A stretch of DNA of 63,975 nucleotides, filler included, from Candidatus Woesearchaeota archaeon (GCA_023266675.1; 5 parts of 5 records of this genome joined end to end with filler, not necessarily neighbours in it), one strand, 5' to 3'; shown: positions 1 through 63,852, counted from the first letter of the whole stretch. Notes: generated from the letters alone by a model not told the origin. Made by a program: numbers and translations.

Positions 1-8
1 TATCATTT

Positions 9-506
9 ATGCCATCATGCAAAACAAATGAAATTGGCAGAACAACAATATCAATGAATAATCAGGAGATATATTCTGGAATTCCTGACTGCAAAATGCC
101 TGTAAAAGTGGATATTGGTCCTGGAAAAATTCTTGAAGGCGAAAATAAACTTACATTCTCTGCAAGTGCTGGAAATTATATTGTAGACCAGGCAAAAATA
201 ATATCATACCTTAAAGATTCAGTTTATCCAACGTATTATTTTGAAGCTGACGAGAAAACAATGAATGGTATTAGAAACAATAACATGACTGTTAACATGA
301 CAATAACATTTGTTCCGTCACAGGATTTCCAGGATGTTGAAGTTGAAATCAACGGAAGAAAATTCTCAGTAGACAACAAAAAAAGGCTGTATAACCAAGT
401 AATAAATTCCTATGTGATAGAGGAAAATAACGCTATAAGCATAAGACCGCTTGACGGAACAGTCGACATAGTTGAACTGAAGATAGTAAGATACGAAACA
501 GATTAA
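9..506 (+). CDS. Hypothetical beta-rich protein, probably the 3' end of a larger secreted protein starting before the window
   Basis: Open frame from the window edge, beta-strand-like composition, same strand as the downstream lipoprotein cluster. Confidence 0.6.
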   Translation: MPSCKTNEIGRTTISMNNQEIYSGIPDCKMPVKVDIGPGKILEGENKLTFSASAGNYIVDQAKIISYLKDSVYPTYYFEADEKTMNGIRNNNMTVNMTITFVPSQDFQDVEVEINGRKFSVDNKKRLYNQVINSYVIEENNAISIRPLDGTVDIVELKIVRYETD

Positions 507-522
507 TCTAATTCTTTTTTAA

Positions 523-2052
523 TTAAAAAGTAATCGTTCCACTTGACGTGAATTTATAGACGCGATTCTTAAAACCGACCCCTGTGGCAAATGGAGAATC
601 TGCATTCCAAGAAGGTGTACCAACAGCAGTTAATATTGAAGAACTAGATGATGTATCGATAAATGCGCTGCCTGAAACAGTATTAAGTAAAAGTGAAGTT
701 CCAGAAATAGCAGTTAATGGAGCTGTACTCGGTGTAAAGTTTCCAGTATAAACAGCAGTTCCTTTAACAACACGTAAATTAGAAATGTACCCAACACCTG
801 ACAAGCCATTATTATATTGCTCTCCAACATAAGCAGATTGCCCAGATGGTGCATCATTCCCGCTATATGATATAGGTGTACCAAATACACCGTCTAATGC
901 AATGTTAACGCTTGAACCAGTGAACACCATAGCTACATGATGCCATGCATTTAATTTTCCAGTATAATCAACGGATGTGTGTTCGTATTTGTAAGTAGAA
1001 CCATCATAGAGTCTGCCTATTATGTTATATCCATTAGCAATTCCAAGTTCTACAAAATGATTTCCTCCTGCGTGAGTTCCAATTTGAAAAAGATTTATTA
1101 TCGTAGCTACAGATGTTAAATTTACCCAGCATTCTATAGTGAATGCCCCGCTACCAAAATCAAACCCTGATTTATTAGGAATTGTAAAATAATCAGGAGT
1201 GTTATTAAAAAAAATACTTCCAGAACCAGATGTTGTAATCGTCGGCGAACCAGTTGTCGACACTGCAGCTGCAAAACTATCAGGATAACTGATTATTACT
1301 ATGCCAGAACCTCCGTTCTTCCCATTAGCGCCAGAATTAGCTCCGCCTCCACCTCCAGTATTAGCTGTTCCGGCTGTAGCTCCGCTACCATCAGAGTCAC
1401 CTGTGCCGCCGCCGCCAACTCCACCTACTCCGTTTGGTTTAGCAGCATGCGTATGTCCTCCACCACCACCAGCATATGTTGTTACTGTTCCAGTTATACA
1501 TGAAGCTATTCCTGCACCGCCATTCCCGCCACCATTTGCCTCTGGTGGAACTAAACCAACAGTTCCTGCCCCACCACCACCACCTGAACAATATGGACTT
1601 GCAGCAGATACTTGCCCAGCACCACCGTGGTTCCCCTGCCCAACTATCCCATTACCTCCTGGATTTGAATTATTAGATGCACCATAAGCTCCACCACCTC
1701 CAGACCCTCCATTATAATTATCATATAAAGTTATTGTGCCACCTTCCATCCCCTGACCGCCGCCTATTGCAGTAATAGACCCAAAAACAGAATTACTACC
1801 TCTCGCCGGAGGATTTGTGTCTGCACCACCCGCGCCGATTGTGATTGTATAAGATGTTCCTGAAACTACAGAAAGAATGCCTGACAATAGTCCTCCTGCG
1901 CCTCCGCCACCGCCGCCTCCCATAACTCCGGAGCCTGGACCTCCTCCTGCAACAACTAAATATTCAACCCAATCTGTTTTAAGAGAACCACTCCAAGTTT
2001 TATTTGCAAGCATTGAAAGCTGTTGCGACATTGAGTACATTCCGCTAACCAT
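523..2052 (-). CDS. Glycine-rich domain protein with an inserted LamG/ConA-like lectin domain (phage tail-fibre-like)
   Basis: VEYLVVAGGG...GGGGAGG...ANTGGGGG...GGSGIVII glycine-rich pattern. FTIECWV, WHHVA and GYISNLRVVKG are LamG-3 motifs. Start placed at ATG 2052, overlapping the upstream stop (TAATG). Confidence 0.8.
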   Translation of the reverse strand: MVSGMYSMSQQLSMLANKTWSGSLKTDWVEYLVVAGGGPGSGVMGGGGGGGAGGLLSGILSVVSGTSYTITIGAGGADTNPPARGSNSVFGSITAIGGGQGMEGGTITLYDNYNGGSGGGGAYGASNNSNPGGNGIVGQGNHGGAGQVSAASPYCSGGGGGAGTVGLVPPEANGGGNGGAGIASCITGTVTTYAGGGGGHTHAAKPNGVGGVGGGGTGDSDGSGATAGTANTGGGGGANSGANGKNGGSGIVIISYPDSFAAAVSTTGSPTITTSGSGSIFFNNTPDYFTIPNKSGFDFGSGAFTIECWVNLTSVATIINLFQIGTHAGGNHFVELGIANGYNIIGRLYDGSTYKYEHTSVDYTGKLNAWHHVAMVFTGSSVNIALDGVFGTPISYSGNDAPSGQSAYVGEQYNNGLSGVGYISNLRVVKGTAVYTGNFTPSTAPLTAISGTSLLLNTVSGSAFIDTSSSSSILTAVGTPSWNADSPFATGVGFKNRVYKFTSSGTITF

Positions 2053-2897
2053 TAGAAAGTCACCGTCCCGGATGATGTCCATGTATAAATTCTCCATGGA
2101 CCAACAATACTCATGATTGGAGAACCTGTCGTTGATACAGCTTGCGCATAAATTGAAAGATAACGAATGATGACTATGCCAGAGCCTCCTGCTCCACCAT
2201 TTGCTGAATTACCAGCTCCTCCGCCTCCACCACCTGTATTCGCTGTTCCAGCTACTCCTGGTAAATTAAGAAGTCCACCTGCTCCGCCACCACCTGCACC
2301 TCCCATTCCTGATCCTGTAGTAACTTGTGATCCTCCACCACCTCCACCAGCATAAAATACACGTGAACATGTGATAGTTGAAACTTGTCCTGTTCCAGCA
2401 TTACTGCCTGTATCAGCAATAGTGGATTGTGTTCCTATAGAACCAGCCCCACCACCTCCACCGCCAGATGTTCCGCTGCTAGCTTTTCCAGCAACTCCGT
2501 CAAATCCTTGTCCAGATGTTCCAGTTCCTACTGCAACTCCTGCCCATGGTCCACCACCAGAGCCGCCATTTCCGCCTGTTTGCGTTCCGCCTGCATGACC
2601 AGTCCCACCAAATCCTCCGCCTATAGCTGTAATATTTCCAAAAACAGAATTATTACCAATAACTCCTTCGTTTGATGTGCCTGCTGCTCCACCCGCACCA
2701 ATTGTGATTGTAATAGATGATCCAGAAGAAACAACAAATCCTACAGCAGTAAGCAACCCTCCAGCACCACCTCCACCGCCAGATGTACCACCGCCACCTC
2801 CACCAGCAGCAACAACTAAGTATTCAACGGTTGGAGTAACTGGCAAATTTAAGGATGAAGTTGTTATTCCCCCAAGGTATTTATTCTTTATGCTCAC
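2052..2897 (-). CDS. Glycine-rich domain protein, paralog of the downstream gene
   Basis: Same VEYLVVA-GGG / GGSGIVIIRY / YTWTSSGTVTF architecture. Confidence 0.8.
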   Translation of the reverse strand: MSIKNKYLGGITTSSLNLPVTPTVEYLVVAAGGGGGGTSGGGGGAGGLLTAVGFVVSSGSSITITIGAGGAAGTSNEGVIGNNSVFGNITAIGGGFGGTGHAGGTQTGGNGGSGGGPWAGVAVGTGTSGQGFDGVAGKASSGTSGGGGGGAGSIGTQSTIADTGSNAGTGQVSTITCSRVFYAGGGGGGSQVTTGSGMGGAGGGGAGGLLNLPGVAGTANTGGGGGGAGNSANGGAGGSGIVIIRYLSIYAQAVSTTGSPIMSIVGPWRIYTWTSSGTVTF

Positions 2898-3277
2898 GAT
2901 ATTGCCTCATAGCTAACAGTGAACGTTAATTTACTTGCAGTGCTGCTTGTAACCCAGATTGTGCTTGCCTCCCCAGAAACGCTTGTGTCAAGCAAATAAA
3001 AACTTACAGATTTATCCATGATAGTCAATGAAGAATTTGCAGGTATAGAAATCGTTGATGCTATTGCGCGATACGTTGAGCCATCAGCTAACCTTAATTC
3101 GACAGTTGCGTTGTAAGGGTTTGTTCCGTCTATGTTTGAAACTGATATCATATTAATTTTATACGCTGTTCCTGACGACGGCGCAGCAACAAGCGCATTA
3201 CGTGAGGTATCAGAAGGTGTAATTATCGTCGTGTGTGGAATAATAGAAGTTATACTAATCATATTTGGCGCTGCCAA
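2894..3277 (-). CDS. Phage-like small beta-sandwich protein (MAAPN... family)
   Basis: TTG start after a GGTGA Shine-Dalgarno site. YKINMISVSNIDG and SYEAIS resemble tail-associated genes of aquatic tailed phages (recognised from memory). ATGA-type overlap with the next gene. Confidence 0.65.
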   Translation of the reverse strand: MAAPNMISITSIIPHTTIITPSDTSRNALVAAPSSGTAYKINMISVSNIDGTNPYNATVELRLADGSTYRAIASTISIPANSSLTIMDKSVSFYLLDTSVSGEASTIWVTSSTASKLTFTVSYEAIS

Positions 3278-3279
3278 TT

Positions 3280-3588
3280 TTAATCACCAAAAACCATTGA
3301 TATGACAACTGCTTTGCCCACAGTTGCTACACGCAAGTTGTTTTCAGTAATGTTTCCTGTAACGCTAAGTGTTCCTGCAATAGAAGTATTGCCTGTATTT
3401 GCAGCTATTGTAAATTTATTAGAATTAATTGCAACGTCCCCACTAGTGGTTAGTGTAGATAATCTTCTTTCAGCACCGACTAAACTAACATTGCTAAGAA
3501 TAGCTGCTGCTCCTCCGACGCCAATAGCAAAAAGCCCTTTCTTGATAAATTCCCGTTTCTCTATATCTTGTATCTCTTTCTTATCCAA
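3280..3588 (-). CDS. Small protein with a Tat-like signal peptide and phage-fibre-like C-terminus
   Basis: EKREFIKK plus hydrophobic stretch plus VGA, then SGDVAINSNKFTIAANTGNTSIAGTL and ATVGKAVVISMVFG. TTG start after GGTGAG. Confidence 0.65.
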   Translation of the reverse strand: MDKKEIQDIEKREFIKKGLFAIGVGGAAAILSNVSLVGAERRLSTLTTSGDVAINSNKFTIAANTGNTSIAGTLSVTGNITENNLRVATVGKAVVISMVFGD

Positions 3589-3706
3589 CTACTCACCCAC
3601 AAAGCAGTTCTAACAATATTCATATTTAAAACTTTGCAATAATGCACTCGTATAAATGGTAATTCTTAAATAGGACTTATGTCAGTTAAAGGTAATATAA
3701 GAAAAA

Positions 3707-5512
3707 ATGGTTAATACTCCTCAATCACCTAACTCTGGAATGACTTTTGGAATTGATACGATAAATAATAGTATAAATTCTGGGAAAAAAGTTATTTCAA
3801 ATAACTGGACCTTATTAGCAATAGTATTTTTTTTTCATATACTTAATGTTGGAATAAATCTTACTTTTATTGGAATACCTATTAATTTTCCAGGAATGCA
3901 CTGGTTTAATGGACTTAATATTACTTATTTATGGAAAACACCGCAACTTGCTGGAAGTGTTCTGTACACTAACACCATATTAAACACGACGTTTTGGGTG
4001 TTAATCATAGTTATATTTGTTTTTGGAAGAGGAAAAAGCTGGGAAGAATTTGGCTCTAAAGTTCTTATGGTTGTTGCTTTTGTAGCTGTTTCTATTTTTT
4101 CCGGAATTTATAATATTGGAGATATTGCTTCGTTAAATGTTCTTGGAACTGTGATTGAAATAATCCTGATAATTGTAATTAGAAACGTTATTTTTAAGCA
4201 GCAATATAATATTGTAGAAGCAAATTATTATACCATATTAATCATATTTCTTGACTTTTATTTGATAAATATTGTTCAGTTAATGTTTCCTGCACAAATC
4301 GACGTGATAAACAGGGTTATTCTTCCTGTTCTTGTTTTGACAGTTATAGTTTATATGGAAAGCTCAACTTTAAAAAGTTGGTTTATTTTTGGTATCTTAT
4401 TTTTTTATCTTATTTTTTTTATGACAAGCTCTCCAAGCATTAAAGCAAATTTTAATGCCGGCTTCAAGGGTGCAGAAAAAGATGCAACACCATTGCAAAC
4501 TTTTTCTGAAAAAGTAAAAATTTGGTGGGCTGGAACTCTGCAATCATATAACGAATCAAAACAGATGCTCTCAGGAGATTATTATACAGGTCAGGTTGAG
4601 CAGAATCAGGTAAAGCCTCTCGGCGTCTTCCTTGAAGATATGAAAGGTGACACTGAATTTTTACAGAATGAAAAAATTGAAATCTGGAGCAAACTAAAAG
4701 TCCAGTCTTTGCAAAATGATAACTCTCCAGAAACAGATCCAATAAATATTAATGTGAGCTGCTTTATAAAAAATGGAACAGGAGTTATAAATGGGATTAT
4801 TTCACCAAAATCAGAATTTAAAGTAAATTCATATGAAGAGGAATTTTTAACTTGCTCATTTAATAATATAAATTTATCTCCTGGTTATTATCCTGTGACA
4901 TTTAACGCATCATTTAACTTTGAAACCCAAAGCTATCTAAAAACATATTATATTGATAAGGACAAAAAACGAACGCTTATGGCAAACAATGTAAATATTC
5001 TAAGCAGTTATGGAATAAGTGACACGAGTCCTGTTGCTGTATACACAAATGGGCCAATAAAGATAGGTATGGAAACAACCCCTCCTCCAATTGGAGTTCC
5101 TTCAATTAATCCTGAAGCTGATTTTAGCTCGTATATAGGAATAACAATTGACAAAAATTGGGGTGAGGGAAGCCTTAAAAGCATTAAAGAATTATGGATT
5201 GAACTCCCTGAAGGATTAAGTTTTAATGACTGTCCCAGTTTTGAAAACCTTCCACAAGATAAGTGGGATACAAAAAATGGCGATAAAAGCTATGTTATGA
5301 TTTCAAAATACCAATTAAATAACAGCAAGATATCAACTGATAATAAAAAAGGATTTACTCTACCTAAATCATATAAATGCTCGCTAAAACTTAAAAGTAG
5401 AAATGACCTGCTTGGGCAAACGCCTATAGCAATAAAATATTTTAAGACAAGAATTAGCTATGATTATATGATTACAAAAACAACAAATATAAACATAAGG
5501 AGTATAAACTAA
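3707..5512 (+). CDS. Multi-pass membrane protein with a large extracellular domain related to the three downstream lipoproteins
   Basis: About 7 hydrophobic segments in the N-terminal 240 aa. C-terminal domain has FNFET, NGPIKI and ISYDY motifs. Confidence 0.8.
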   Translation: MVNTPQSPNSGMTFGIDTINNSINSGKKVISNNWTLLAIVFFFHILNVGINLTFIGIPINFPGMHWFNGLNITYLWKTPQLAGSVLYTNTILNTTFWVLIIVIFVFGRGKSWEEFGSKVLMVVAFVAVSIFSGIYNIGDIASLNVLGTVIEIILIIVIRNVIFKQQYNIVEANYYTILIIFLDFYLINIVQLMFPAQIDVINRVILPVLVLTVIVYMESSTLKSWFIFGILFFYLIFFMTSSPSIKANFNAGFKGAEKDATPLQTFSEKVKIWWAGTLQSYNESKQMLSGDYYTGQVEQNQVKPLGVFLEDMKGDTEFLQNEKIEIWSKLKVQSLQNDNSPETDPININVSCFIKNGTGVINGIISPKSEFKVNSYEEEFLTCSFNNINLSPGYYPVTFNASFNFETQSYLKTYYIDKDKKRTLMANNVNILSSYGISDTSPVAVYTNGPIKIGMETTPPPIGVPSINPEADFSSYIGITIDKNWGEGSLKSIKELWIELPEGLSFNDCPSFENLPQDKWDTKNGDKSYVMISKYQLNNSKISTDNKKGFTLPKSYKCSLKLKSRNDLLGQTPIAIKYFKTRISYDYMITKTTNINIRSIN

Positions 5513-5520
5513 TAATAAAA

Positions 5521-6504
5521 ATGACAAATAACAAAACAAAAGGATTTATGTTTATTATTACCATAGTTTTATCTTTGTACTTATCCGGATGCAGTCTTGC
5601 AAATTTTTCCGCCTCAGGAAAAGAAACCCCTATAACAAATGTTAATGTTTATCAGGGCACTGAAGGGCTTGAGATTGAATTCCTGACAAATTCTCCTCCT
5701 GAAAAAGTATATGAAGGAGAAAATTTCGTGGTATCAACTCTTCTTAACAATAAAGGAGCGTATCCAATTACCAGTGGAAAAGTTGTATTGACGCATGAAC
5801 CTGATTATTTTGATGTACCGACAACTTCATCAACATTCAACCTGCTTGGAAAAACAATGTATGACCCTTCAGAGCATAATATACAGAAAAGTTTCAATTT
5901 AAATACAAAAAAGCTTGAACCAAAATCAACTGGTCACGACAGCATAGTTTTAGTTACTGCATGCTATGATTATGGAACAAAATTAAATACAGAAGTGTGT
6001 ATTGATACGGATCCTCAAAACATAAAAGCCATAGAAAAATCATGCAATACAGAAGATTTGTCTTTTAGCGGACAGGGAGCGCCAATTGCCATAACAAAAA
6101 TAGAAACAAAAATGATTATAGGTGAAGGAGGAAAAGTTAGACCTAATTTCTGGATATATGTTCAAAATCATGGAGATGGGCAGGTTATATCAAAAAGCAG
6201 CATTGATAAAGCGTGCGGCTCTGCGAGTATTGATAAAAATGAGTTAAACGGAGTAGTTTTAAAAGATTTAAAATTTTCACAATACACTTTAGCTGATATG
6301 GACTGTAGGCCGAAACCGGAAACATCATTAAATCCTGTTTTAAAGCTTACAGATAACGAACAGTATTTCATATGCACATTAAGAGATGACGTTTCAATAC
6401 CTGCTGATACCTCAACTTTTAAAACCGGTCTTTATATTGAACTTGAATATGGATACACACTAACAAAATCAAAAGAGTTCACCATAAAAAAATATAATAC
6501 CTAA
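5521..6504 (+). CDS. Uncharacterised lipoprotein, paralog 1
   Basis: Lipobox LSGC; GTEGL, TACYDY, VCID, GQGAP, LEYGY motifs. Confidence 0.8.
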   Translation: MTNNKTKGFMFIITIVLSLYLSGCSLANFSASGKETPITNVNVYQGTEGLEIEFLTNSPPEKVYEGENFVVSTLLNNKGAYPITSGKVVLTHEPDYFDVPTTSSTFNLLGKTMYDPSEHNIQKSFNLNTKKLEPKSTGHDSIVLVTACYDYGTKLNTEVCIDTDPQNIKAIEKSCNTEDLSFSGQGAPIAITKIETKMIIGEGGKVRPNFWIYVQNHGDGQVISKSSIDKACGSASIDKNELNGVVLKDLKFSQYTLADMDCRPKPETSLNPVLKLTDNEQYFICTLRDDVSIPADTSTFKTGLYIELEYGYTLTKSKEFTIKKYNT

Positions 6505-6592
6505 GTTAATATGCTTAATCAGATAGATTAACCACTTTATAATGTATAAATTTAAGAAAGATATAAATACGAGTATTCTTAGTAAAATCAAT

Positions 6593-7513
6593 ATGTTAAA
6601 AAAACAATTGTTAATTATGATTCTGTCTGTTCTTATGGTTTTCGCATCTGGATGCCAAACTGATATGTATAATCCTCAAAAAACAACTCAGATAACAAAT
6701 TATCATACAGGAACTGAAGGACTTTCACTTAAATTTTTACAAGATACCCCTCCTGCTAGAATATACTCAAACACTCCAATGGATATAATGGTGGAAATAA
6801 CAAATAAAGGCGCTTACAGTGTTGCCGGAGGAAAACTGTATCTCTCAGGATTTGACACTCAGTATATAAGACCTTACCCTGAAATGCAGCCAAATATTGA
6901 AGCTGAGGGAAAATCAGTTTTTAATCCTTACGGAACAGTAACCCAAACAGAAAGTTTCAATGTAAATCAGGTTTTGCTTCCATATAATGTTGATAAGGTG
7001 ACCCAAACAATAAAAGCAACTGCATGCTACGAGTATATGACTGAAGCATCAATTGAAGTTTGCATTGACCCAAAAACAACTACAACTTTAAGAGAAAGGA
7101 CATGCATTCCTCAAAGTTCATATTCAGCTGGCGGCGGGCAAGGAGCACCTGTTGCCATAACAAGTGTTGAACAAGAGACATATCAAAATAAACTGCAATT
7201 CAGAATATATATAAGCAATGTCGGAGGAGGGACAGTTTTCAAAAATACAGCTATAAATGACTGCCATACATCCCTTAATAGGATGGATGCGAATAAGGTT
7301 GATGTTGTAAGCGTTGAATATTCAGGTAGAACAATGAACTGTAAACCGTTAAACCCTGTAACTCTTGACGAAAGCGGAAGAGGATTTGTTTATTGCGAAG
7401 GATATCTCTCTCCAGACCAAAAAGACACCTACAAAACAATACTTCAGGTAAAACTAAGATATGGATACAGAACGTCAGTCCAGACAAATGTGGATATAAT
7501 AAAATCACCTTAG
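6593..7513 (+). CDS. Uncharacterised lipoprotein, paralog 2
   Basis: Start refined to MLKKQ; lipobox ASGC; GTEGL, TACYEY, VCID, GQGAP, LRYGY motifs. Confidence 0.8.
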   Translation: MLKKQLLIMILSVLMVFASGCQTDMYNPQKTTQITNYHTGTEGLSLKFLQDTPPARIYSNTPMDIMVEITNKGAYSVAGGKLYLSGFDTQYIRPYPEMQPNIEAEGKSVFNPYGTVTQTESFNVNQVLLPYNVDKVTQTIKATACYEYMTEASIEVCIDPKTTTTLRERTCIPQSSYSAGGGQGAPVAITSVEQETYQNKLQFRIYISNVGGGTVFKNTAINDCHTSLNRMDANKVDVVSVEYSGRTMNCKPLNPVTLDESGRGFVYCEGYLSPDQKDTYKTILQVKLRYGYRTSVQTNVDIIKSP

Positions 7514-7614
7514 AGTGGTATTAATATCAAAAGATTTATATAAAAAAAGACTAAAAAAAGTTTAACAATTAATATTTATTAAGATATCAACAAAAATATA
7601 CGGAGGAAATAATT

Positions 7615-8553
7615 ATGAACAAAAAAATTATAATAATGATAAGCGTTATACTATCCATGTTTTTACTCTCTGGATGCAGTGGAGGAAACACTCAACAGGT
7701 AACAGTTGACAATCCATATCTTGGAGGCTCACAGGGGCTAATTGCCACATTTGAACCAATGGGCATAGCAGATAACGGCGGAACTGAAAGCATATACGAG
7801 AATGAAGAATTCCCAGTTGATATTACATTAAAGAATCAGGGAGAATTTAATGTTCCCGCTAATAGTGTAAAAACAAATTTAAAAGGAATAACCACAGCAG
7901 ATTATACTGGCTTGACTATGGATACAACAACAAATCCTGCAATTGAAAAGATTTCGACGTACAACCAGAAAGGCGGCGAAACAACAATAACACATAATAA
8001 AGGAAAGATAATTCCTGCAAGAATGGCTGGACGAAACATTATGACTGCAAACATATTTGCAAACGTCATATACCCTTATGAAACTTATGTCTCAGCTCCT
8101 AAAGTCTGCTTTAAAAGCACATCAGGAAAAGACACTGGAGTATGTGAAGTTGAAAATGCAGCTCTTCAGGTATTCTCATCAGGCGCGCCAATACGAGCAG
8201 TAAGTGCCAAGGAAACAAGAGCCGGAACAAATGTTGTAAGCGTTGAATTCACAATAGAGAATGCTGGCGGCGGAGAATCAAAGTCAAAAACAAAAACAGA
8301 ATTTGATTACAGGTACAATGACATAGATTTTGAAGTTGGAAGCAGCACCCCATCAGGTATATGGACATGCACAAATGCCGGTAAAGCCGGAATTGCAAGG
8401 TTTGGCGAAGACAACAAACTTACAATCATCTGCAAATCAATTCCGTCTGCAATACAGACAGGAAGCGTTTACCAGAGCCAGCTTGACCTTGTATTGAAGT
8501 ACGATTACAAAGTTGTAATCTCAAGAAACCTAATAATAAAAGGAAACCAATAA
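7615..8553 (+). CDS. Uncharacterised lipoprotein, paralog 3
   Basis: GGAGG Shine-Dalgarno; lipobox LSGC; GSQGL, YPYET, SSGAP, LKYDY motifs. Confidence 0.8.
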   Translation: MNKKIIIMISVILSMFLLSGCSGGNTQQVTVDNPYLGGSQGLIATFEPMGIADNGGTESIYENEEFPVDITLKNQGEFNVPANSVKTNLKGITTADYTGLTMDTTTNPAIEKISTYNQKGGETTITHNKGKIIPARMAGRNIMTANIFANVIYPYETYVSAPKVCFKSTSGKDTGVCEVENAALQVFSSGAPIRAVSAKETRAGTNVVSVEFTIENAGGGESKSKTKTEFDYRYNDIDFEVGSSTPSGIWTCTNAGKAGIARFGEDNKLTIICKSIPSAIQTGSVYQSQLDLVLKYDYKVVISRNLIIKGNQ

Positions 8554-8568
8554 ATTATTCTTTTTATT

Positions 8569-10005
8569 TTATTTTTTAATATTTTTATATGCATTCAATA
8601 TTTCTGTCTTGTCATAATTTTTGCTTATCATTTTCTGGATAATTTTTTCTTTTGTGTCCCCTTTTGATAATGCGCTTTTTATCAGATTATCAAGTTCTTC
8701 TGACTTATGAGCTTTAAAGGTTTTATTAGATGTTTCATCAGATTCATATTTATTTAAAAACTCAGATGCCTTAGGACTTATTACAGATCTTATTTTTTCT
8801 TCTACTTCTTTTAAAAATTCATCTTTTTCAGCTTTTTTATCAGAAATTTTATTTTTATATTCATCTATCTGTTTTTGAAACATGTTAATTGATATCTCAG
8901 AATTTAATTGTTCTCTAGTGTTTTTTTCAATTATTTCGTTTATCTTTGACTCATAATGCGAGATTAACTGAACTATTCTATTTTCGTACATCTCCTTTTC
9001 TTTTGTCTTTTGAGATGCTAATCTTAAAAACTTGTCTTTTAAATCCGAAAGTCCGGATTCCATAAAATTATTGCTGCTTTGCAGCTTTGATAATTTTCCT
9101 GACAGTGACTCAAGTGTCTTTTCATATGTTTTTTTTGAGACATAGTAATCTTCTTGTTTTAGCAGGATTTTTTCATTTAAAGCTTTAAGTTTTTTTTCTA
9201 AAACAAGATTCTCCTTAAGCACTGACTGTAACTTTTTTAGAATCTCTTCTCTTGAAAGTCTTATCAATTCTGATGGTAGACCTGTTTTTTTTAAATTTTC
9301 TATATTTTTGTTTTCATCATTTATCTGGCTTTGCAGAAACTGTATTTTTTTATCTTTTTCTAAAATTAAATTCTCGTATTTTGATATTAATTTTTTTACA
9401 TAAATCTGTGCTTTTTTATTTTTTTCATTATTTTCATTTAGCTTTTTTTTATAAGCAAGAGCAATATCATCAATTATCTCTTTTGTTTTTGATGAAACTT
9501 CACTGGATATTGTTTTTCTGCTTGAATTTTCAAGCTCCATTAATTTCCTGTTATAAGCTTCTTTTTGTTTTAAGATTTCTTTATGCAAAACGGAATTCTC
9601 ATTCTTTAGATTGAAAAAGTCTTTTTCCAAGGACTCGTTCCCTTTGAGTACTTTGTATATTTTATCATCATATCTTACCTGTTTTTTCAAATTCTTAATG
9701 TAATCATCTTTTTTTAGTATCAAAGTTTCATATCCAGTAACTACTTCTTTTATTGATGATTTTATATCATTTATTTCACTGTCTTTGCTAAAGATTATTT
9801 TATTGTAGTCAGCTGTTAACTTATCAATGACTTTTTTTGCCTTTAAGCTGGTATCCTGGTATTCCTGTTCTTTTTTTAGAAAGCTTTTTTCAAAATCAGA
9901 TTTTATTTTAACGAGATTATTTTGGAGTTTATCAATACTTGAAAGAAATTCTTCACCATCTTTTTCCTCTTTTTTTTCTCGTGTATCGATGCTTTGACCC
10001 ATCAT
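8569..10005 (-). CDS. Long coiled-coil protein of unknown function
   Basis: K/E-rich heptad pattern throughout, small helical C-terminal domain, no ATPase motifs. Confidence 0.75.
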   Translation of the reverse strand: MMGQSIDTREKKEEKDGEEFLSSIDKLQNNLVKIKSDFEKSFLKKEQEYQDTSLKAKKVIDKLTADYNKIIFSKDSEINDIKSSIKEVVTGYETLILKKDDYIKNLKKQVRYDDKIYKVLKGNESLEKDFFNLKNENSVLHKEILKQKEAYNRKLMELENSSRKTISSEVSSKTKEIIDDIALAYKKKLNENNEKNKKAQIYVKKLISKYENLILEKDKKIQFLQSQINDENKNIENLKKTGLPSELIRLSREEILKKLQSVLKENLVLEKKLKALNEKILLKQEDYYVSKKTYEKTLESLSGKLSKLQSSNNFMESGLSDLKDKFLRLASQKTKEKEMYENRIVQLISHYESKINEIIEKNTREQLNSEISINMFQKQIDEYKNKISDKKAEKDEFLKEVEEKIRSVISPKASEFLNKYESDETSNKTFKAHKSEELDNLIKSALSKGDTKEKIIQKMISKNYDKTEILNAYKNIKK

Positions 10006-10031
10006 GAACTTGTAAATTTATGAAATCTGAA

Positions 10032-10985
10032 TTATGAATTAAGCAGAACAAACTTTGAAAGTAGCGCTTCAAGCTGTATGAATTCATCAGAGCCTTCAAC
10101 AAGCCTAAATTCTGCCTCACCGCATTCCTTTATCATTTCAAGACGTTTTTTGGCATCAACATCAAGCGACCATATCTGTCCCTGTATCTGTTTTATCAAA
10201 TCAGTTCCTGATAAACCATAATTTAACATTGTGTCTAGCAAATGCTTTTTTGCCTCAATAAATTTTCCTTTAACTGTGAATTCAAGAACTTCCTTTATCT
10301 CTTTAGGTCTGGCGACTGATGCCATTGAATAAACTGTTTCTTCTGTGACATGGTCGCTTACTGCTGCGCATGACTGAAGCACGTTTTCAAGTCTTCTGCA
10401 ATCTCCTTCAGAAACAATAAACAGCGCATCCATTGCCTTAGAATCTATTTTTATCTTTTCATTGTGCGATATCTTTTTTATAATGTCAAGTATATCATCC
10501 TTGTTTAATGGCTTAAATTTGAACAATGCACATCTGGACTGTATAGGATCTATTATTTTTGACGGATAATTGCATGAGAGTATGAACCTGCACGTGTTTG
10601 TGTAGTTCTCCATTGTACGTCTTAATGCCTGCTGCGCTTCACGTGTCAAAGCGTCACACTCATCAAGATATATTATTTTAAATGGAACCTCTCCAAGTGC
10701 TCTTGTTCTAGCAAAATCCTTGACTTTTATTCTTACTACGTCAATTCCTCTTTCGTCTGACGCGTTTAGCTCAAGAAAGTTTTCTCTCCATGAAGGACCA
10801 AAGAATTCTTTTGCTATAACAAGTGAAAGCGTTGTCTTGCCGATGCCTGCTGGACCTGTGAATAAAAGATGAGGCATATTTTTCTGTTTTATAAATGCTT
10901 TTACTCTCTTAACTATATCTTCCTGTCCTTTAATATCATCAAAACTTGATGGTCTGTACTTTTCTGTCCACATTGATGTTTCCAT
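10032..10985 (-). CDS. rfcS: Replication factor C small subunit
   Basis: WTEKYRP, Walker A GPAGIGKT, ELNASDERG, LDECD, SRC motif. Confidence 0.97.
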   Translation of the reverse strand: METSMWTEKYRPSSFDDIKGQEDIVKRVKAFIKQKNMPHLLFTGPAGIGKTTLSLVIAKEFFGPSWRENFLELNASDERGIDVVRIKVKDFARTRALGEVPFKIIYLDECDALTREAQQALRRTMENYTNTCRFILSCNYPSKIIDPIQSRCALFKFKPLNKDDILDIIKKISHNEKIKIDSKAMDALFIVSEGDCRRLENVLQSCAAVSDHVTEETVYSMASVARPKEIKEVLEFTVKGKFIEAKKHLLDTMLNYGLSGTDLIKQIQGQIWSLDVDAKKRLEMIKECGEAEFRLVEGSDEFIQLEALLSKFVLLNS

Positions 10986-11029
10986 GATTAAAATAGGATT
11001 TGGTGTTATTATTAAATCTTTCTAGAATA

Positions 11030-11164
11030 ATGCTTTATTGAAAAGTTACCCTACTTCATCTCACTCACTTTAAAACGTTCGTTCGATTCCGTCTGACCTT
11101 GCAATATTTATCTAATAAATAATTGCAAATAATGGTGCAGACGGTTAACTTTTCAATAACGCCT
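11030..11164. mobile_element. MITE-like structured repeat, family A copy 1
   Basis: Terminal inverted repeat GCTTTATTGAAAAGTTA/TAACTTTTCAATAACGC, flanking direct repeat AGAATA, second copy at 25367. Confidence 0.75.
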
Positions 11165-11329
11165 AGAATATAAGACTAAAATATAAAAAAATAATGCATC
11201 ATGAAAGTAAATATTAAAGATAGAATAAAAATATATAGAAAATCTTGAAAAACATAGCAAAATTTTCTAAGAAGTGCTTTGAAATATCATAAAGAGAGGG
11301 TTATTCAAAGCCCTCTATATTAAAAAAAA

Positions 11330-11614
11330 TTAAATTATGTCTTCTTCAGCTACTACCATGAAGTCGCCTACTGCGATTACTGCGCTAAATGGTACAAGGA
11401 TTTGCCCTTTCTTGTCTTTTTCAAGATCGAGTTTTTCTGTGTATGATGTAGGATTTATCAAAACCATGTGTATAAGTTCGCCGGTTTTTGTTTCAAAGAT
11501 AATATCTCCTACTTCTCCAAATTTCTTTCCTGTTTTAGAGACTATTGTCTTTCCTATAAGCTGTCTTGAGAACTTCTTGTCTTCTTCTCCCATATTTTTT
11601 TCAGTTTCGGCCAT
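11330..11614 (-). CDS. PRC-barrel domain protein (CdpB-like)
   Basis: LIGKTIVSKTGKKFGEVGDIIFE and VPFSAVIAVGDFMVV are typical PRC-barrel segments. Confidence 0.85.
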   Translation of the reverse strand: MAETEKNMGEEDKKFSRQLIGKTIVSKTGKKFGEVGDIIFETKTGELIHMVLINPTSYTEKLDLEKDKKGQILVPFSAVIAVGDFMVVAEEDII

Positions 11615-11714
11615 TTTTCACCCACAAACCTCTCATTATTATACTCTTTAGATTGAATATGCTTATATTTATAGGTTTCTATTTTAGGATAGTAAATAAT
11701 ACTGGTATAATAAA

Positions 11715-12530
11715 TTAGGTGTTGTAACACTGCTCATAAAGCTGGTATGCAGTGCACTTATTCTTCTCTAAGATTTTTGGAGGAAGTATTTTTTGTGATA
11801 ATAGCTCCCTGACTTTTTGTGTGAGTTCACTTATCTCTTTTTTTAGAAACGGGTCAAGGATAATTTGCCGTTCAACCCCATAGTCAAGGTATCTTACTAT
11901 GCCTTCTTTTATTTTAATTTCATTTTTTTCCAATAGAAGCATCATATACGCTCCAAGCTGCACTTTATGACCCTCCCAAACGCCAGTTTCAGGGGCTTTC
12001 CCGGTCTTTAGCTCTACAGGAACCATTTCATTATTCTATCTTCTAAGTTCATCGATTATTCCTTTAAGACCCAGTGTATCTGATTCAACTCTTACTTCAG
12101 ACTCTATTTTTGGTGTAAGCGATTCCCATAGCTCTTTTCCAGTTAATCCTGTTTTTTTGTGATATGAATAAACATTTGTTGCATGATATTTTGCCTCTTC
12201 AAGAATCATAGGTAAAGTTTTAGTTAATGTCAAAGAAATGTCAAGCTTTGCTTCTCTTAGGATTCCTTTGTTTTTTATTATTGTTTTTCGAAGAATTTTA
12301 GTGTAAACTTTTTTATACTCGCTAAATACCTCTTCATAAGTCATGCCTACCTTTAAAAAATTTACAAGCTCTTCTTCTGATTTATTTATACCGTCATAAG
12401 TCTCATGCCGAATTGTTCCTTTGACAAGCGCTTCACGCGGTATCTTTATTATTTTTAAAACCTGTTCAAAATACAGTTTTCTAGGACAGTACAAATAAGA
12501 TGATAGAAAAGTAACGCTTATCTTTTGCAT
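11715..12530 (-). pseudogene. Solo Cas4-like PD-(D/E)XK nuclease interrupted by an in-frame TAG
   Basis: YLYCPRK, GIID, ELKTG and QLGAY motifs. The two ORFs are in the same frame, separated by TAG at 12036-12038. C-terminal C-x2-C reads CTAY. Confidence 0.8.
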
Positions 12531-49502: not shown

Positions 49503-51905
49503 ATGCCACAAATAACAATAAATAGAAAAGTGTTTGAAACACTCGTTGGACGAAAGCTGCCTATCGAAAAGCTAAAAGACAGAATAAGCTATTTAGGAAC
49601 TGATCTTGATGAAATAACTGATGACGAGATAATGGTTGAAATTTTCCCAAACAGACCGGACATGCTGTCAGAACAGGGATTTGCACGGGCATTTTCAAGC
49701 TTCATCGGTGAAAAAACAGGTCTAAGAAATTATGAAGTAAAAAAAGGCGGCAAAGATTATAAAGTAATAATAGATGATTCATTAAAAGATGTAAGACCAT
49801 ACACTGCGTGCGCAATTGTTAAAAACCTTAAGTTTGACGACGAAAGAATAAGGGAAGTAATTCAGATACAGGAGAAGCTTCACATCTCCTACGGACGTCA
49901 GCGAAAAAGAGTTGCAATAGGAATTTATCCTCTTGAAAAAATAACGCTTCCAATAACATTCAAAGCAATGAAGCCTGACGAAATAAACTTTGTGCCGCTT
50001 ATGGCAGACGACAGCAAAGCTCAAAATGAAGAAAGCGGACAGACAATAAAATTGTTCTGGGAAAACCCTTATCTCATAAAATGCAAAGCAAAAGTTGTTC
50101 AAATAAATGGCAAAAAAGTAAAACTTGATCAAACAATATTCTATGCTTTCTCAGGAGGGCAAGAATCAGACTCAGGAACTATCGGTGATATAAATGTTCT
50201 AAGCGCTGTAAAGCAGGGTGACAAGGAAAGCATAATTAATATTGAGTACGAGCTGGAACATGAGCCAAATTTTAAAGTTGGAGACGTTGTTGACGTAAAA
50301 ATTAATAAAGAAAAGCGAGGAAAGCTCATGAGGCTGCACTCAGCAGCACACATAATATATTATATTGTTTATGAAAAACTTGGAAAGCTTAAAATAATTG
50401 GCTCAAACATAACAAGCGAGAAAGCAAGAATGGATTTTGAATACGACAAGCCATTAAATGAAGTTTTGCAGGAGATAGAATCAGACGTTAATAAATTAAT
50501 TGAAGAAAATCACAAAATAGAAATGTATGGGGATGAAAAAAACCAAAGCCTAAGATGGTGGAACTGCAAAGAATACAAGATGCCATGTGGTGGAACACAC
50601 GTAAGTTCAATGCAGGAAATAGGGAAAATACAGTTAAAAAGAAAAAATATCGGAGCAGGAAAAGAAAGAATTGAGATATACCTATCTGAAGAAGAAAATC
50701 TGCATTTTTATTCTCAAGAAAAATATGAAGAGCAAAAATCAAAAATAATTGCTCCTAAAATAATGACTGCAAAACAGATTCTTGAAAATCACCCGACTGG
50801 AAAAGAATACGCGCCACTTTTGCACGGGCTTAAAAAATACCCGATATTTATTGACACAAAAGGAAAAATACTCTCAATGCCTCCAATAATTAACAGCCAT
50901 GACATAGGCAAGGTTACGGAAAAAACAACAGACGTGTTCATTGAATGCTCAGGTTTTGACTTTGAAGTGCTGTCAAAATGCCTAAATTTCATAGTAACTG
51001 CGCTGTCTGACATGGGAGCAGAAATATATGAGATGGAACTTGATTATAAGGACAATAAAAAACATACTCCTAACTTAAATCCGCTCGAAATGAATGTTGA
51101 CCATGATTACATAAACAAGCTTTTAGGGCTTGAATTAAAAGATGGCGAATTTAAGGAATATTTTGAAAAAATGGGATATGCATATCATAAAAACAAGGTT
51201 TTTGTTCCAGCATGGCGTGCAGACATACTTCACCAGGCAGACCTCGCTGAAGATGTGGCAATAGCTTATGGATACGAGAATTTTGAAGAAACAATTCCAA
51301 ACGTCGCAACAATAGGGCACGCAAATGATTTTGAAGTCTTCAAGGAAAGAATACTTGAAGTGCTAGTCGGCCTTGGATTTATAGAAACAAATACGTTTTG
51401 CATAATAAACAAAGATGAGCAGATAAAATTCATGAATTATAACGGCGAAGTTGTTGAACTCTTAAATTCAGTATCAGAAGAATACAACTCACTTAGGTCA
51501 TGGATGACGCCAGCAATGCTTAGCGTATTAAAAAATAACAAGCACCATGAGTATCCGCAGAATATCTTTGAGGCAGGAAAAGTATTCTTAAAAGACAGTG
51601 AAAAAGAGACAGGTGTAAAAGAGGATGTCAGGCTTTGCGTTGCAATATCAGCAGTTGACGCAGACTACACAAGAATAAGGCAAGTTCTTGATTTAATATT
51701 CGAATCATTAAACACCGACTATGAAATAACTGAAACAGAGCACAATTCATTTGTTCCAGGGCGTGTTGCAAGAATAATAAAAGGAGACAAAAAAATAGCA
51801 TATATTGGAGAGATACATCCAAAAGTACTGGAAAATTTTTCGCTTGAAACTCCAACGGCAACGCTCGAATTAAACCTAACCGAGCTTTATTCCATATTAA
51901 AATGA
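49503..51905 (+). CDS. pheT: Phenylalanyl-tRNA synthetase beta subunit with inserted AlaX editing domain
   Basis: NRPDMLS, QEKLH, LSMPPIINS, RADILHQADLAEDVAIAYGY, IGEIHP; insert carries FYAFSGGQESDSG, HSAAH and CGGTH. Confidence 0.95.
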   Translation: MPQITINRKVFETLVGRKLPIEKLKDRISYLGTDLDEITDDEIMVEIFPNRPDMLSEQGFARAFSSFIGEKTGLRNYEVKKGGKDYKVIIDDSLKDVRPYTACAIVKNLKFDDERIREVIQIQEKLHISYGRQRKRVAIGIYPLEKITLPITFKAMKPDEINFVPLMADDSKAQNEESGQTIKLFWENPYLIKCKAKVVQINGKKVKLDQTIFYAFSGGQESDSGTIGDINVLSAVKQGDKESIINIEYELEHEPNFKVGDVVDVKINKEKRGKLMRLHSAAHIIYYIVYEKLGKLKIIGSNITSEKARMDFEYDKPLNEVLQEIESDVNKLIEENHKIEMYGDEKNQSLRWWNCKEYKMPCGGTHVSSMQEIGKIQLKRKNIGAGKERIEIYLSEEENLHFYSQEKYEEQKSKIIAPKIMTAKQILENHPTGKEYAPLLHGLKKYPIFIDTKGKILSMPPIINSHDIGKVTEKTTDVFIECSGFDFEVLSKCLNFIVTALSDMGAEIYEMELDYKDNKKHTPNLNPLEMNVDHDYINKLLGLELKDGEFKEYFEKMGYAYHKNKVFVPAWRADILHQADLAEDVAIAYGYENFEETIPNVATIGHANDFEVFKERILEVLVGLGFIETNTFCIINKDEQIKFMNYNGEVVELLNSVSEEYNSLRSWMTPAMLSVLKNNKHHEYPQNIFEAGKVFLKDSEKETGVKEDVRLCVAISAVDADYTRIRQVLDLIFESLNTDYEITETEHNSFVPGRVARIIKGDKKIAYIGEIHPKVLENFSLETPTATLELNLTELYSILK

Positions 51906-54732: not shown

Positions 54733-56157
54733 TTATTTCCCCATGAATTTTCTCATCATAGGATTCATATCATACATATGCTGTTTTGCGATGTCTTCGT
54801 ATAATCTGTATATAATCATAACTGTAAGTAGAAGTCCTGTCCCACTTGATAGTGCCCCTGATAAATCTGCCATTGCGGCCAAAAATCCCACTGTTATTGC
54901 ACCCATTACTGTTAGCGGCATGATATACCTGTCTAAAACTTTTTCAAGAATTCTTTGATCTTTTCTAAAACCTGGTATTTGAAGACCTGATTCCATCATT
55001 TTTTTGGCCTGTGACCTAGAGTCCATTCCGCTTGTTTGAACCCAGAATAATGAGAATATAACTGCGCCGCCGATTAAGATTAGTATATATGTTAAGGCCT
55101 GAATCCATGTCAGCCATCCTATAAAAATTGTTCCCTGTGAAATTATTGCGCTTACTAAGTTAGGTCCTGTCACCCATGGTCTAACTGCCTGTGCTGCTGA
55201 TTGTCCTCCAAAAAGGCTTACCCAAAGCTGCACGTTAGCAAGGAGTGCCGCGACTAATATAACTGGGATGTTTGATGTGTAAATGAATGATAAAGGCCAT
55301 CTTATGCCGTGTCCTCTTACTCGTCCAAATGATAAAGGTATTTCAACTTTCATTGCTTGCGCATACACTGCAACGACAAAAACAAGTATTGTAGCAAGCA
55401 CTGCTGCTAAAAGAAGGAATGCGGTTGTTGAGTCGCCCGCTGCTATGGACTGGAAAAATGCAGGTATTGCTCCTGCAGATATATCAGGATTAGTTGGTGA
55501 CGGCAACGGATTTATTGCTCGAAGCAATATAGATTTTGATACCCCTGCAGCGATGAAAAGTGATATTCCTGAGCCAAATCCCCATTTTGAGACAACTTCA
55601 TCCATAAGCATGACGAGTATTCCTCCAAGCATTAATTGGAAGATAAGTGCAAGTTTTAAAGTCATAATCATTGTTCCTGTTAAAGCAATTGCGCCAGCAG
55701 TTCCTACTGCCAAAAACTGATTTGTTGCAGGGTCATAGAATGCTCCAGGTGAGAGTCCTCCCATGAAAACATAAATAGCTGCCTCAAATAATATGAATAA
55801 TAATGAGAATAATTTCTGTGTTCCCTGAAAATTCTTTTTACCTTCATGAGTGTTTAAGTCAAATTTTACTAGACCTGATCCGTTTAATAATTGTAAAACG
55901 ATTGATGCAGTAACAAGCGGTCCTATTCCAAGGCTCATTATAGAGCCGAATTCTGCTCCAAGAATTATTGAAAGATATTGAAACTGCTGAAGTGCGTTGT
56001 TTCCAAGGCCAAACAATGGAATCAAACCTAATATGAAGAATAATACAAGTATAACTAGAGTCCACTTGATTTTCTGCTTAAAACCAAGCTTTGCTTCCGT
56101 TGGTCCCTTTATCTCAGGAAGATTTGATACTATATTAGTGTATAACCCCATAATCAT
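54733..56157 (-). CDS. secY: Preprotein translocase SecY
   Basis: LGIGPLVTASIVLQLL, KWGFGSGISLFIAAGV, YTSNIPVIL, IPGFR, GTGLLLTV. Confidence 0.97.
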   Translation of the reverse strand: MIMGLYTNIVSNLPEIKGPTEAKLGFKQKIKWTLVILVLFFILGLIPLFGLGNNALQQFQYLSIILGAEFGSIMSLGIGPLVTASIVLQLLNGSGLVKFDLNTHEGKKNFQGTQKLFSLLFILFEAAIYVFMGGLSPGAFYDPATNQFLAVGTAGAIALTGTMIMTLKLALIFQLMLGGILVMLMDEVVSKWGFGSGISLFIAAGVSKSILLRAINPLPSPTNPDISAGAIPAFFQSIAAGDSTTAFLLLAAVLATILVFVVAVYAQAMKVEIPLSFGRVRGHGIRWPLSFIYTSNIPVILVAALLANVQLWVSLFGGQSAAQAVRPWVTGPNLVSAIISQGTIFIGWLTWIQALTYILILIGGAVIFSLFWVQTSGMDSRSQAKKMMESGLQIPGFRKDQRILEKVLDRYIMPLTVMGAITVGFLAAMADLSGALSSGTGLLLTVMIIYRLYEDIAKQHMYDMNPMMRKFMGK

Positions 56158-57539: not shown

Positions 57540-57639
57540 NNNNNNNNNNNNNNNNNNNNNNNNNNNNNNNNNNNNNNNNNNNNTTAATTAATTAANNNNN
57601 NNNNNNNNNNNNNNNNNNNNNNNNNNNNNNNNNNNNNNN
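57540..57639. other. Artificial contig linker
   Basis: N-run with TTAATTAATTAA. Confidence 0.99.
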
Positions 57640-63600: not shown

Positions 63601-63852
63601 TGGCGATAATCCTGTTGCTTTTATTGCATGATTTTTTACAAGATTATTTGAGGAGAAAGGAGGGCCATATGCGGTTGTTAATCCTATTTCAACGCTTGTT
63701 GTTGAAGAGTTGTCTGTTTGCCACGTAAAATCTGCAGAATTACTTTGAGAGCTTACCATCTGCCCACTTATTGTAAGAGCGTATGATACTGGCAGCGCTA
63801 TGATTAGATAGATTATAATTATTACGATAAAATTAAGCATCCCCTTTCCCAT
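57640..63852 (-). CDS. Giant secreted protein (>2070 aa) with Fn3/Ig-like repeats and a Cys-rich C-terminal region, 3' end at gap
   Basis: Signal peptide; WQTD...H...GLSPQTKYYY Fn3 repeats; DTTPP-type linkers; later helical and Cys-rich segments. Confidence 0.88.

Follow-up and report, generated by a model that had tools for sequence, protein, structure and literature searches.

Bdellovibrio bacteriovorus, a cell that depends on recognising other cells, carries mosaic adhesive trimer (MAT) fibres on its surface. In the available part of their description, the MAT protein has a signal peptide, a conserved β-rich domain of ~130 amino acids (aa) and a trimeric fibre with a varied tip (PMC10769870). 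In the cyanophage Pam3, again according to the part of the description available, the host receptor is recognised by the TNF-like plus glycine-rich part of the fibre, and folding of the fibre involves a chaperone (PMC9608196). How DPANN archaea recognise and attach to their partners is presented as an open question in PMC11329633, the available sections of which mention tail-fibre-like “antennae” only on the host cell. The subject here is a 3.07-kb cassette of four coupled genes, all on the minus strand, at positions 523–3588 of a window of 63,975 nucleotides (nt), filler included, from Candidatus Woesearchaeota archaeon (GCA_023266675.1). The cassette is of phage origin, a receptor-binding (fibre) module as found in tailed phages; it lies in the archaeal chromosome, and its first protein carries a leader. 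Our favoured reading, of moderate confidence, is that a tiny archaeon of the symbiotic (DPANN) type displays phage-type receptor-binding fibres for attachment to its partner, made from a captured and re-fitted module. Literature searches gave no report of such phage-fibre-like adhesin genes in DPANN archaea.

A tailed-phage fibre module

The first gene of the cassette encodes the anchor, P1 (3588..3280), a protein of 102 aa with a TTG start and the C-terminal end ATVGKAVVISMVFGD. It is followed by P2 (3277..2894), a jelly-roll protein of 127 aa with a MAAPN N-terminus that is presumed to be an adaptor, and by two distal fibre proteins. G1 (2897..2052) has 281 aa and matches the Pfam family Gly_rich_2 at 1.2e-23; G2 (2097..523) has 524 aa from the ATG at 2097 and matches Gly_rich_2 at 1.9e-22 and, at its C-terminus, Laminin_G_3 (a ConA-like lectin domain) at 1.3e-13. 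The genes are closely packed, with a gap of 2 nt between P1 and P2 and an overlap of 4 nt between P2 and G1. G2 most likely starts at Met16 instead (ATG 2052–2050), which gives 509 aa and a 1-nt overlap with the G1 stop, a start calculated from the coordinates of the open reading frames (ORFs) and not from the sequence letters. The four tightly coupled minus-strand genes that the first-pass annotation described were found exactly in that order.

The same arrangement is met in viruses. P2 has 461 homologues, and the 120 listed are 69–78% identical to it and nearly all 127 aa long; identity to six IMG/VR loci is 69–73%. The nearest Atlas clusters are 96–100% viral, with Uroviricota the commonest group. 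From the 89 IMG/VR loci collected, 79 P2 homologues with an upstream ORF were obtained (near-duplicates included; 47 distinct tails), and in 78 of the 79 the ORF immediately upstream has an ending of the GKAIAMAIVFG(G) type, 77 being found by pattern and one variant by eye. The sole upstream ORF that lacks this ending is in L037. Its counterpart in P1 is the C-terminal motif TVGKAVVISMVFGD (3283..3324, minus strand). The viral anchors range from 73 to 1464 aa and have N-termini of the typical fibre type, the middle gene encodes a P2-type jelly-roll protein of 117–132 aa, and downstream of it are variable proteins, many with ~30% glycine, that end in GSITF as G1 and G2 do. The cultured phage DSL-LC04, whose host belongs to the Gammaproteobacteria, has the identical gene order and the anchor end GKSIAMAMIFGF.

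An anchor with GKAIAMAIVFG(G), a 117–132-aa jelly-roll protein and an exchangeable distal protein make up a combination that is very widespread in aquatic phage contigs (viral loci L002–L104), some of them up to 160 kb. N-terminal motifs, M..RY.GG.I and GVWTLDQA..G.WP among them, recur in the viral distal proteins. The literature was searched for the GKAIAMAIVFG motif and for PF21722/Gly_rich_2/DUF7483, and no paper on the module was found.

Matches of the cassette to PHROGs are to virion, baseplate and tail families. Residues 45–84 of P1 match the structural protein PHROG 697 (7e-6), and G2 matches PHROG 2295 at 1.6e-43, in addition to baseplate and virion structural PHROGs. A scan for the P2 pattern across species-representative genomes found none, and searches of PDB sequences with P2, G1 and G2 gave nothing meaningful.

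Structure models point the same way for G1. Its AlphaFold2 (AF2) model has a predicted local distance difference test (pLDDT) score of 90.3, with residues 1–12 below 50, and has no helices by DSSP. Foldseek alone gave weak matches for both P2 and G1 (TM 0.3–0.5), and VIA re-alignment was needed. By VIA, the G1 model aligns with the tail tip of mycobacteriophage Bxb1 (9d93_Qb) at Z 13.8 (root-mean-square deviation [rmsd] 3.0, 160 residues aligned, 38% identity) and with the Pam3 fibre (7ypx_A) at Z 13.3 (rmsd 2.5, 162 aligned, 32% identity); the next group, the ALK glycine-rich domain, is well below at Z 5.5. The modelled fold of G1 is the TNF-like plus glycine-rich receptor-binding fold. P2 is modelled as a small single jelly roll (pLDDT 92.1) that aligns at Z 10.0 with the KHP40 cement protein, at 9.1 with the STIV turret and at 9.0 with Ena fibres; this range (Z 8.7–10) identifies the fold of the model only, and no function. 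In a complex prediction with three copies each of the P1 C-terminus and P2, the median score was 0.27, against a mark of 0.32, a result that speaks neither for nor against a contact. The first-pass annotation had likened the cassette to tail/fibre gene runs of aquatic tailed phages, and the match is now documented by a gene order that is that of 79 viral loci and by the fibre fold that the G1 model shares with Pam3 and Bxb1.

Insertion into a conserved gene cluster

The window consists of five contigs of one bin joined end to end, of which contig C26 occupies positions 1–30852. The bin (G000) has 1.22 Mb in 83 contigs, a completeness of 95.9% and a G+C content of 0.343, and the single run that holds the sequence is labelled as a groundwater metagenome. 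Archaeal genes among the window ORFs include those for RFC, PolD DP2, fibrillarin/Nop, aIF2-beta, a tRNA-splicing endonuclease and SecY. The RFC of C26 shares up to 74% identity with those of Nanoarchaeota, Woesearchaeota and Pacearchaeota metagenome-assembled genomes (MAGs). Judged from these genes, the source organism is therefore a DPANN archaeon of the Nanoarchaeota/Woesearchaeota type.

The cassette is flanked by two plus-strand genes that belong together in related genomes. On the left (3..506) is the C-terminal 167 aa (3' end) of a conserved DPANN gene, the contig starting inside the gene; on the right (3707..5512) is the gene for a conserved DPANN polytopic membrane protein of 601 aa, homologues of which are present in 38 of 60 relatives. 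In six of the seven relatives' loci examined, the homologue of the left ORF is directly upstream of the 601-aa homologue and co-directional with it; in the closest relative, G001, the uninterrupted junction has a gap of 46 nt. The order left ORF–601–327–323 is kept in relatives. Since the site is empty in six of seven loci, the cassette is a genuine chromosomal insertion that splits a conserved cluster. The first-pass annotation had suggested looking at synteny in relatives, and its claim that the cassette interrupts a plus-strand surface-protein cluster stands on that synteny. The grounds that it gave do not: the left partial ORF has no similarity by BLASTP to the genes on the right.

After the 601-aa gene, at 5521–8553, are three mutually paralogous signal-bearing proteins. 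Together, 3–506 and 3707–8553 correspond to a conserved DPANN cluster. Its members are a 400-aa-class protein, a polytopic membrane protein whose C-terminal domain is large, and signal- and Cys-bearing paralogues, two to three in number.

Contigs from a second assembler (Logan) bridge 81–1314 and 3287–5600 with zero differences, at depths of 5.7 and 7.0. They come from the same sample, so they are not independent data. Continuity of coverage, another check proposed at the outset, is thus seen at both junctions, at similar depth, and not across the glycine-rich middle (1314–3287), which these contigs leave uncovered. DNA stretches of G1 and G2 are 80–84% identical (1757–1864 and 2614–2727, with a spacing of ~860 nt), which points to tandem duplication of a glycine-rich gene, and this repeat is the likely reason why the second assembler broke within the cassette. 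One metatranscriptome of the same sample yielded a single stray contig of 168 nt, on the glycine-rich repeats.

Could the cassette be a viral fragment that was mis-joined into, or mis-binned with, an archaeal contig? It sits only 523 nt from the end of C26, its middle is uncovered, the bin holds paralogous repeats that could mislead an assembler, and a related MAG (G036) has a similar cassette on a phage-like contig. Nevertheless, such an artefact is highly improbable: both junctions are bridged, albeit from the same sample, six more loci of this kind have housekeeping genes on both sides, the G+C at third codon positions (GC3) is host-like, and the leader links these loci with one another, not with viral contigs.

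A prophage or other integrated element is rejected as a reading. No integrase, capsid or terminase families were found among the 51 window ORFs, which agrees with what had been noticed from the sequence beforehand. Across the whole bin there were no matches to Terminase_6N, Phage_capsid or Phage_portal, and at the cassette borders no att-like repeat, direct or inverted, is conspicuous.

The cassette is indeed richer in G+C than its flanks, as had been remarked, with 0.44–0.52 over 1201–3000 compared to 0.28–0.34 over 3601–6600. The excess is wholly in codon positions 1 and 2 (0.44–0.63), and reflects the Gly, Ala and Thr codon content of the genes. The GC3 of 0.18–0.33 is inside the genome range (mean 0.299 and standard deviation 0.055 over 401 long ORFs), so the raised G+C does not indicate foreign codon usage; it was rejected as a mark of recent foreign origin.

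The divergent intergenic region (3589..3706) contains TTTAAATA at 3630–3623 on the minus strand, and by eye a GGTGA is found 5–9 nt ahead of the P1 TTG. Upstream of P1, a promoter role for the former and a ribosome-binding role for the latter are both putative.

The leader and its proposed route of export

In P1 the leader is followed by a short fibre repeat (NSNKFT..NTGNT..AGTL), and the docking motif forms the C-terminus. The N-terminus of P1 reads MDKKEIQDIEKREFIKKGLFAIGVGGAAAILSNVSLVGA, followed by ERR. The leader (3472..3588, minus strand; residues 1–39) starts with MDKKEIQDIEKREFIKK, has KREFIKK in its N-terminal (n-) region, and continues with a Gly/Ala-rich hydrophobic stretch that leads to VGA. 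Of the cassette proteins, P1 alone is hydrophobic at its N-terminus (maximal Kyte-Doolittle mean over 19 residues, 1.93); P2, G1 and G2 are not, in line with the earlier observation of a signal on the first gene only. None of the 79 viral anchors has a comparable N-terminus. Their maximum is 1.58, and none reaches 1.6.

Scans for the leader pattern found none in IMG/VR, nothing in JGI metagenome contigs, and one bacterial chance match only in the species-representative genomes. When the rule [KR]RxF[LIVM][KR] plus a hydrophobic stretch was applied to all ORFs of the genome, it returned only five matches, all of them fibre-like: P1 on C26, its paralogue on C52, two adjacent genes on C2 and one gene on C20. 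A degenerate remnant of the leader is also present on C41. A profile built from the five leaders retrieved 21 proteins out of 1.84 billion. The external metagenomic leader-bearing proteins number 17, and their mature parts consist of fibre repeats, S74 chaperone domains, C1q-like domains or Kelch-like repeats; one cluster of them includes ocean-survey sequences. A near-length homologue search with P1 found P1 itself only. On the sequences compared, the leader is confined to archaeal or cellular versions of the anchor. The first-pass annotation had expected phage homologues with the signal in archaeal versions only, and had named a shared phage N-terminus as one finding that would overturn it; the homologues are there, and the shared N-terminus is not.

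In an alignment of 16 leaders, the second Arg, the Lys of F-I-K and one Ser are invariant, and the Phe and the Ala of the AxA site are nearly so; RR is found in two. Among the five paralogues in the bin, nonsynonymous differences per site (pN) in the leader are 0.04–0.23, whereas synonymous differences (pS) are 0.39–0.77, with synonymous sites near saturation. By this comparison the leader is therefore maintained by purifying selection and is not merely a recent copy.

What kind of signal is it? In the part of PMC7317946 that is available, signals for twin-arginine translocation (Tat) are characterised by a motif frame, a weak hydrophobic (h-) region, a basic C-terminal (c-) region and an AxA site. 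Set against this description, the P1 leader has [KR]R-x-F-[IVL]-K, a weakly hydrophobic Gly/Ala-rich h-region, a basic c-region residue, an AxA site and Arg at +2/+3. The same source states that model systems tolerate a lysine substitution in the Tat motif poorly, and that a basic c-region together with Arg at +2/+3 hinders Sec export in model bacteria. As far as sequence features can tell, the leader fits a Tat-type signal best.

That it is a true Tat signal, and with it that a working Tat-type route exports the fibres, is less likely than not. P1, P2 and G1/G2 would then assemble in the cytoplasm and hitchhike out, folded, on the one signal-bearing subunit. The conserved residues of the motif, the occasional RR, the c-region features and the restriction of the signal to the anchor all agree with this, as does the folding of Pam3-type fibres with a cytoplasmic chaperone (PMC9608196, available part). 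TatA is encoded on C11 (6891–7028, 52.6 bits), between a response regulator and RpoL, in a setting where just 5 of 40 relatives have it. C38 encodes a canonical twin-arginine lipobox protein (2618–3145, 175 aa) with an SRRQFLG motif and then a lipobox-like LYGC, which is the only convincing twin-arginine candidate; it came from a home-made TatFind-like rule, not from the published program. The difficulty is TatC, as well as the KR of the leader and the lack of any Pfam or NCBIfam family that covers it. Furthermore, three leader-bearing paralogues are single chains, for which hitchhiking is not needed.

A signal of the Sec type, or a signal-anchor with its N-terminus inside, is a slightly less probable alternative. 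Single chains would be exported unfolded and trimerise outside, as in the Bdellovibrio MAT; in the split cassettes, P1 alone would reach the surface, and P2, G1 and G2 would follow by another route, if they left the cell at all. The bin encodes SecY (54733–56157 in the window, on contig C29), TatC was not found there and the leader reads KR. The fused paralogues on C2 (544 aa, with S74, and 513 aa) and on C20 (593 aa) have everything in one chain, and Gly_rich_2 domains are also found behind ordinary hydrophobic signals. However, selection conserves the leader over its entire length, h-region included, which is unusual for a Sec signal, the basic c-region and Arg at +2/+3 are of the kind that hinders Sec export in model bacteria (PMC7317946, available part), and three intact, coupled, signal-less genes would be left without a role.

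The P1 leader also contains KKG-LFAIGV, which fits a simple form of the FlaFind pattern for class III (type IV pilin-like) signals, with its [KR]-[GA] cleavage site immediately ahead of a strongly hydrophobic segment. Two of the 16 aligned leaders have W or S in place of the Gly, Gly and Ala are abundant in the segment, and an AxA site behind it is conserved. Because the Gly is not conserved and an AxA site comes after the stretch, a pilin-type signal appears less likely than one cleaved at AxA.

Several points weigh against the display of phage-type fibres as we picture it, the uncovered glycine-rich middle of the cassette among them. P1 reads K-R-E-F-I-K-K and lacks the twin arginine of S-R-R-x-F-L-K, and KR is found in 15 of the 17 external leaders and in all five of the bin. 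Pfam (E ≤ 0.1) has no family for P1, and NCBIfam (E ≤ 1) has none that covers its leader; the sole NCBIfam match of P1 is autotrans_barl over residues 42–84, below the cut-off, in a scan of eight proteins that was otherwise empty. The TatA gene does not adjoin any TatC, and TatC (PF00902) has no match even at E ≤ 10 in the bin, which at 95.9% completeness leaves its absence unproven, although a missing gene is unlikely. Of 40 relatives, three have TatC, each beside TatA, and two of the five with TatA have no TatC: G026, which is 100% complete, and G036. The three relatives from the same family have neither. Unless the route is Tat, the export of the signal-less P2, G1 and G2 is unexplained. 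Finally, searches of 300 genomes from the order for P1, and of 60 relatives for P2, found neither; the cassette is therefore a narrow lineage trait, known from one bin and scattered metagenomic proteins.

For the Tat part of the first-pass annotation, the outcome is mixed. The Tat-like signal on the first gene holds as regards motif frame, weak h-region and AxA, and fails as regards the twin arginine and a matching family; the search for tatA and tatC that it proposed gave the former and not the latter. Of its domesticated and co-exported fibre tip, domestication survives, on the chromosomal insertion and a leader found only in archaeal versions. Tat co-export of an assembled complex is not borne out, given the failure to match TatC.

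Domestication with an added leader is supported, and the favoured reading, that the archaeon displays phage-type fibres, can be laid out as follows. In phages, the module consists of an anchor with a variable virion-docking N-terminus and the GKAIAMAIVFG end, a small jelly-roll protein and exchangeable distal receptor-binding proteins. In the archaeal anchor, the virion-docking N-terminus has given way to a lineage-specific, selectively maintained leader, which would bring the anchor to or across the cytoplasmic membrane. The C-terminal motif of the anchor would hold the jelly-roll protein, which in turn would bear two glycine-rich tips similar to Pam3 gp24, one with an extra lectin domain. 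The glycine-rich and lectin tips would point outward, and the fibres would attach to a partner cell or surface. Under Tat-type export, the partners that lack signals would travel as a folded complex, which would need a TatC that is absent from the assembly. From the arrangement of the module and its leader we infer the surface display, the subunit contacts, the adhesin role and the route.

Related loci and known systems

Related cassettes are found in six further places in the genome, amid housekeeping genes. The C6 locus, between rhodanese/S17e/Alba and MgtC/ArgRS, has P2, two Gly_rich_2 proteins and a small ORF as in the viral locus L008. C52 has P1, P2 and a DUF7483 protein beside LeuRS, and C41 has the remnant leader, P2 and a DUF7483 protein beside GyrB. 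The remaining members have leader, fibre and tip fused in one chain: the two on C2, the 544-aa one with a Peptidase_S74 chaperone domain, and the one on C20, near enolase and Cbf5. Gly_rich_2 is also present in ordinary signal-bearing giant surface proteins of the bin (on C67 and C76) and in 5 of 60 relatives, where most of the proteins that bear it exceed 1000 aa.

The small ORF on C6 (7621–7968; L108:2421–2768) encodes 115 aa beginning MSHFAKV and follows the glycine-rich genes; its counterpart in the viral loci L008 and L009 has 96 aa beginning MAHFAKL, in the same place. It may be a fibre assembly factor, and there is no such ORF in the C26 cassette. The LeuRS of the C52 locus (8323–11493; L206:323–3493; 1056 aa) has a match to an alpha/beta-hydrolase (residues 242–397) inside the synthetase.

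In a tree of P2, the C26 copy joins the 127-aa viral group in a clade that has full support, the C6 copy groups with other viral loci, and the C52 and C41 copies form a pair. The C26 P2 is 78% identical to metagenomic viral-type proteins, and that of C6 is 73% identical to a viral locus. Forcing the four archaeal copies together, a group that was named before the tree was built, costs 86 log-likelihood units (approximately unbiased [AU] test, p = 0.0014), and a single origin of the archaeal P2 copies is therefore rejected. By this analysis the archaeal copies have more than one origin and form a multi-locus family. The tree itself gives no direction of transfer, but the module is broadly distributed in viruses and absent from relatives, which argues for a passage from virus to archaeon.

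These multiple origins also bear on whether the cassettes serve in adhesion at all. They could be viral leftovers, a stock from which viruses exchange host-range genes, or decoys whose membrane-tethered anchor captures fibre parts of an infecting virus. This is improbable, even though the archaeal copies of P2 lie scattered among viral ones, the tree test rejects a single origin and C41 holds only a degenerate remnant of the leader. Virion genes were not found in the bin and no flanking repeats stand out at the borders, the four genes are intact and coupled, the leader, by its substitution pattern, is under purifying selection and was not found in viral contigs, and the loci lie amid housekeeping genes.

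A further idea, unlikely as it stands, is that receptor-binding modules were captured repeatedly from phages that infect the partner organisms. They would be plugged into a cell-anchored socket made of the anchor motif and the adaptor, and the folded fibres would be exported by a KR-type, Tat-like route without a recognisable TatC. If this is true, the archaeon borrows the host-range determinants of phages for partner recognition, and can swap tips as phages do. If export is Tat-like, the question becomes how KR signals are read with TatA but without a detectable TatC.

A related DPANN bin has a cassette on a different kind of contig (L204; G036:C5:41001–61000). At 10274–12296 it consists of a leaderless anchor-like ORF, a 112-aa P2-like ORF and a 347-aa Gly_rich_2 protein. 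The contig resembles that of a large phage, with T4-type RNA ligases 1 and 2, Dam methylase, a bacterial-type RecA, the Tad3 anti-Thoeris protein and NAMPT/NAD synthase, and belongs either to a virus that infects that archaeon or to a phage that was mis-binned.

Two other ORFs of the window stand out. At 49503–51905 is a PheRS beta-subunit ORF of 800 aa with AlaRS-type domains (the C-terminal part of tRNA-synt_2c and tRNA_SAD) between B1 and B3/4. At 57592–63852 is a minus-strand ORF of 2086 aa with matches to fn3 and other beta-sandwich domains, similar to giant DPANN surface proteins.

The cassette provides concrete candidate genes for partner recognition, with a family-specific leader and a modular architecture of anchor, adaptor and tip. 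A very widespread junction of phage fibres, formed by the GKAIAMAIVFG motif and a 127-aa jelly-roll protein, is brought to notice as well. The known system closest to the cassette is the aquatic phage module, such as that of the lake phage DSL-LC04, with which it shares the gene order, the C-terminal motif of the anchor, the similarity of P2 and distal proteins of the glycine-rich or lectin type. In contrast to the phage module, the archaeal cassette lies in a chromosome without virion genes, and the N-terminus of the anchor is replaced by the leader.

At the level of the tip, the G1 model shares the TNF-like plus glycine-rich fold of Pam3 gp24 (7ypx/7yfw) and of the Bxb1 tail-tip glycine-rich protein (9d93), with 31–38% identity over ~160 residues. 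Unlike gp24, the G1 model has no N-terminal α-helical baseplate-docking domain, and G1 comes after a jelly-roll protein. There is also no gene for a chaperone like gp25 of Pam3 in the C26 cassette.

Hitchhiker export through Tat is exemplified by Escherichia coli, in which hydrogenase or DMSO reductase subunits that have no signal are co-exported with a signal-bearing subunit. The cassette resembles such systems in x-[KR]-R-x-F-[IVL]-K, a weak h-region, a basic c-region, the AxA site and one signal-bearing subunit among signal-less ones. It differs from them in having KR for RR in most members, in that TatC was not found, and in its cargo, which is a phage fibre and not a cofactor enzyme.

The nearest functional parallel is the Bdellovibrio MAT, likened here by description only and from the part of PMC10769870 that is available; as far as the literature searched shows, the cassette would be the first archaeal counterpart of these phage-fibre-like adhesins. 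One archaeal paralogue has an S74 domain. Compared to MAT, the organism here is an archaeon, the leader is Tat-like and conserved, and some members of the family are kept as multi-gene, phage-style cassettes in which only the anchor carries the signal.

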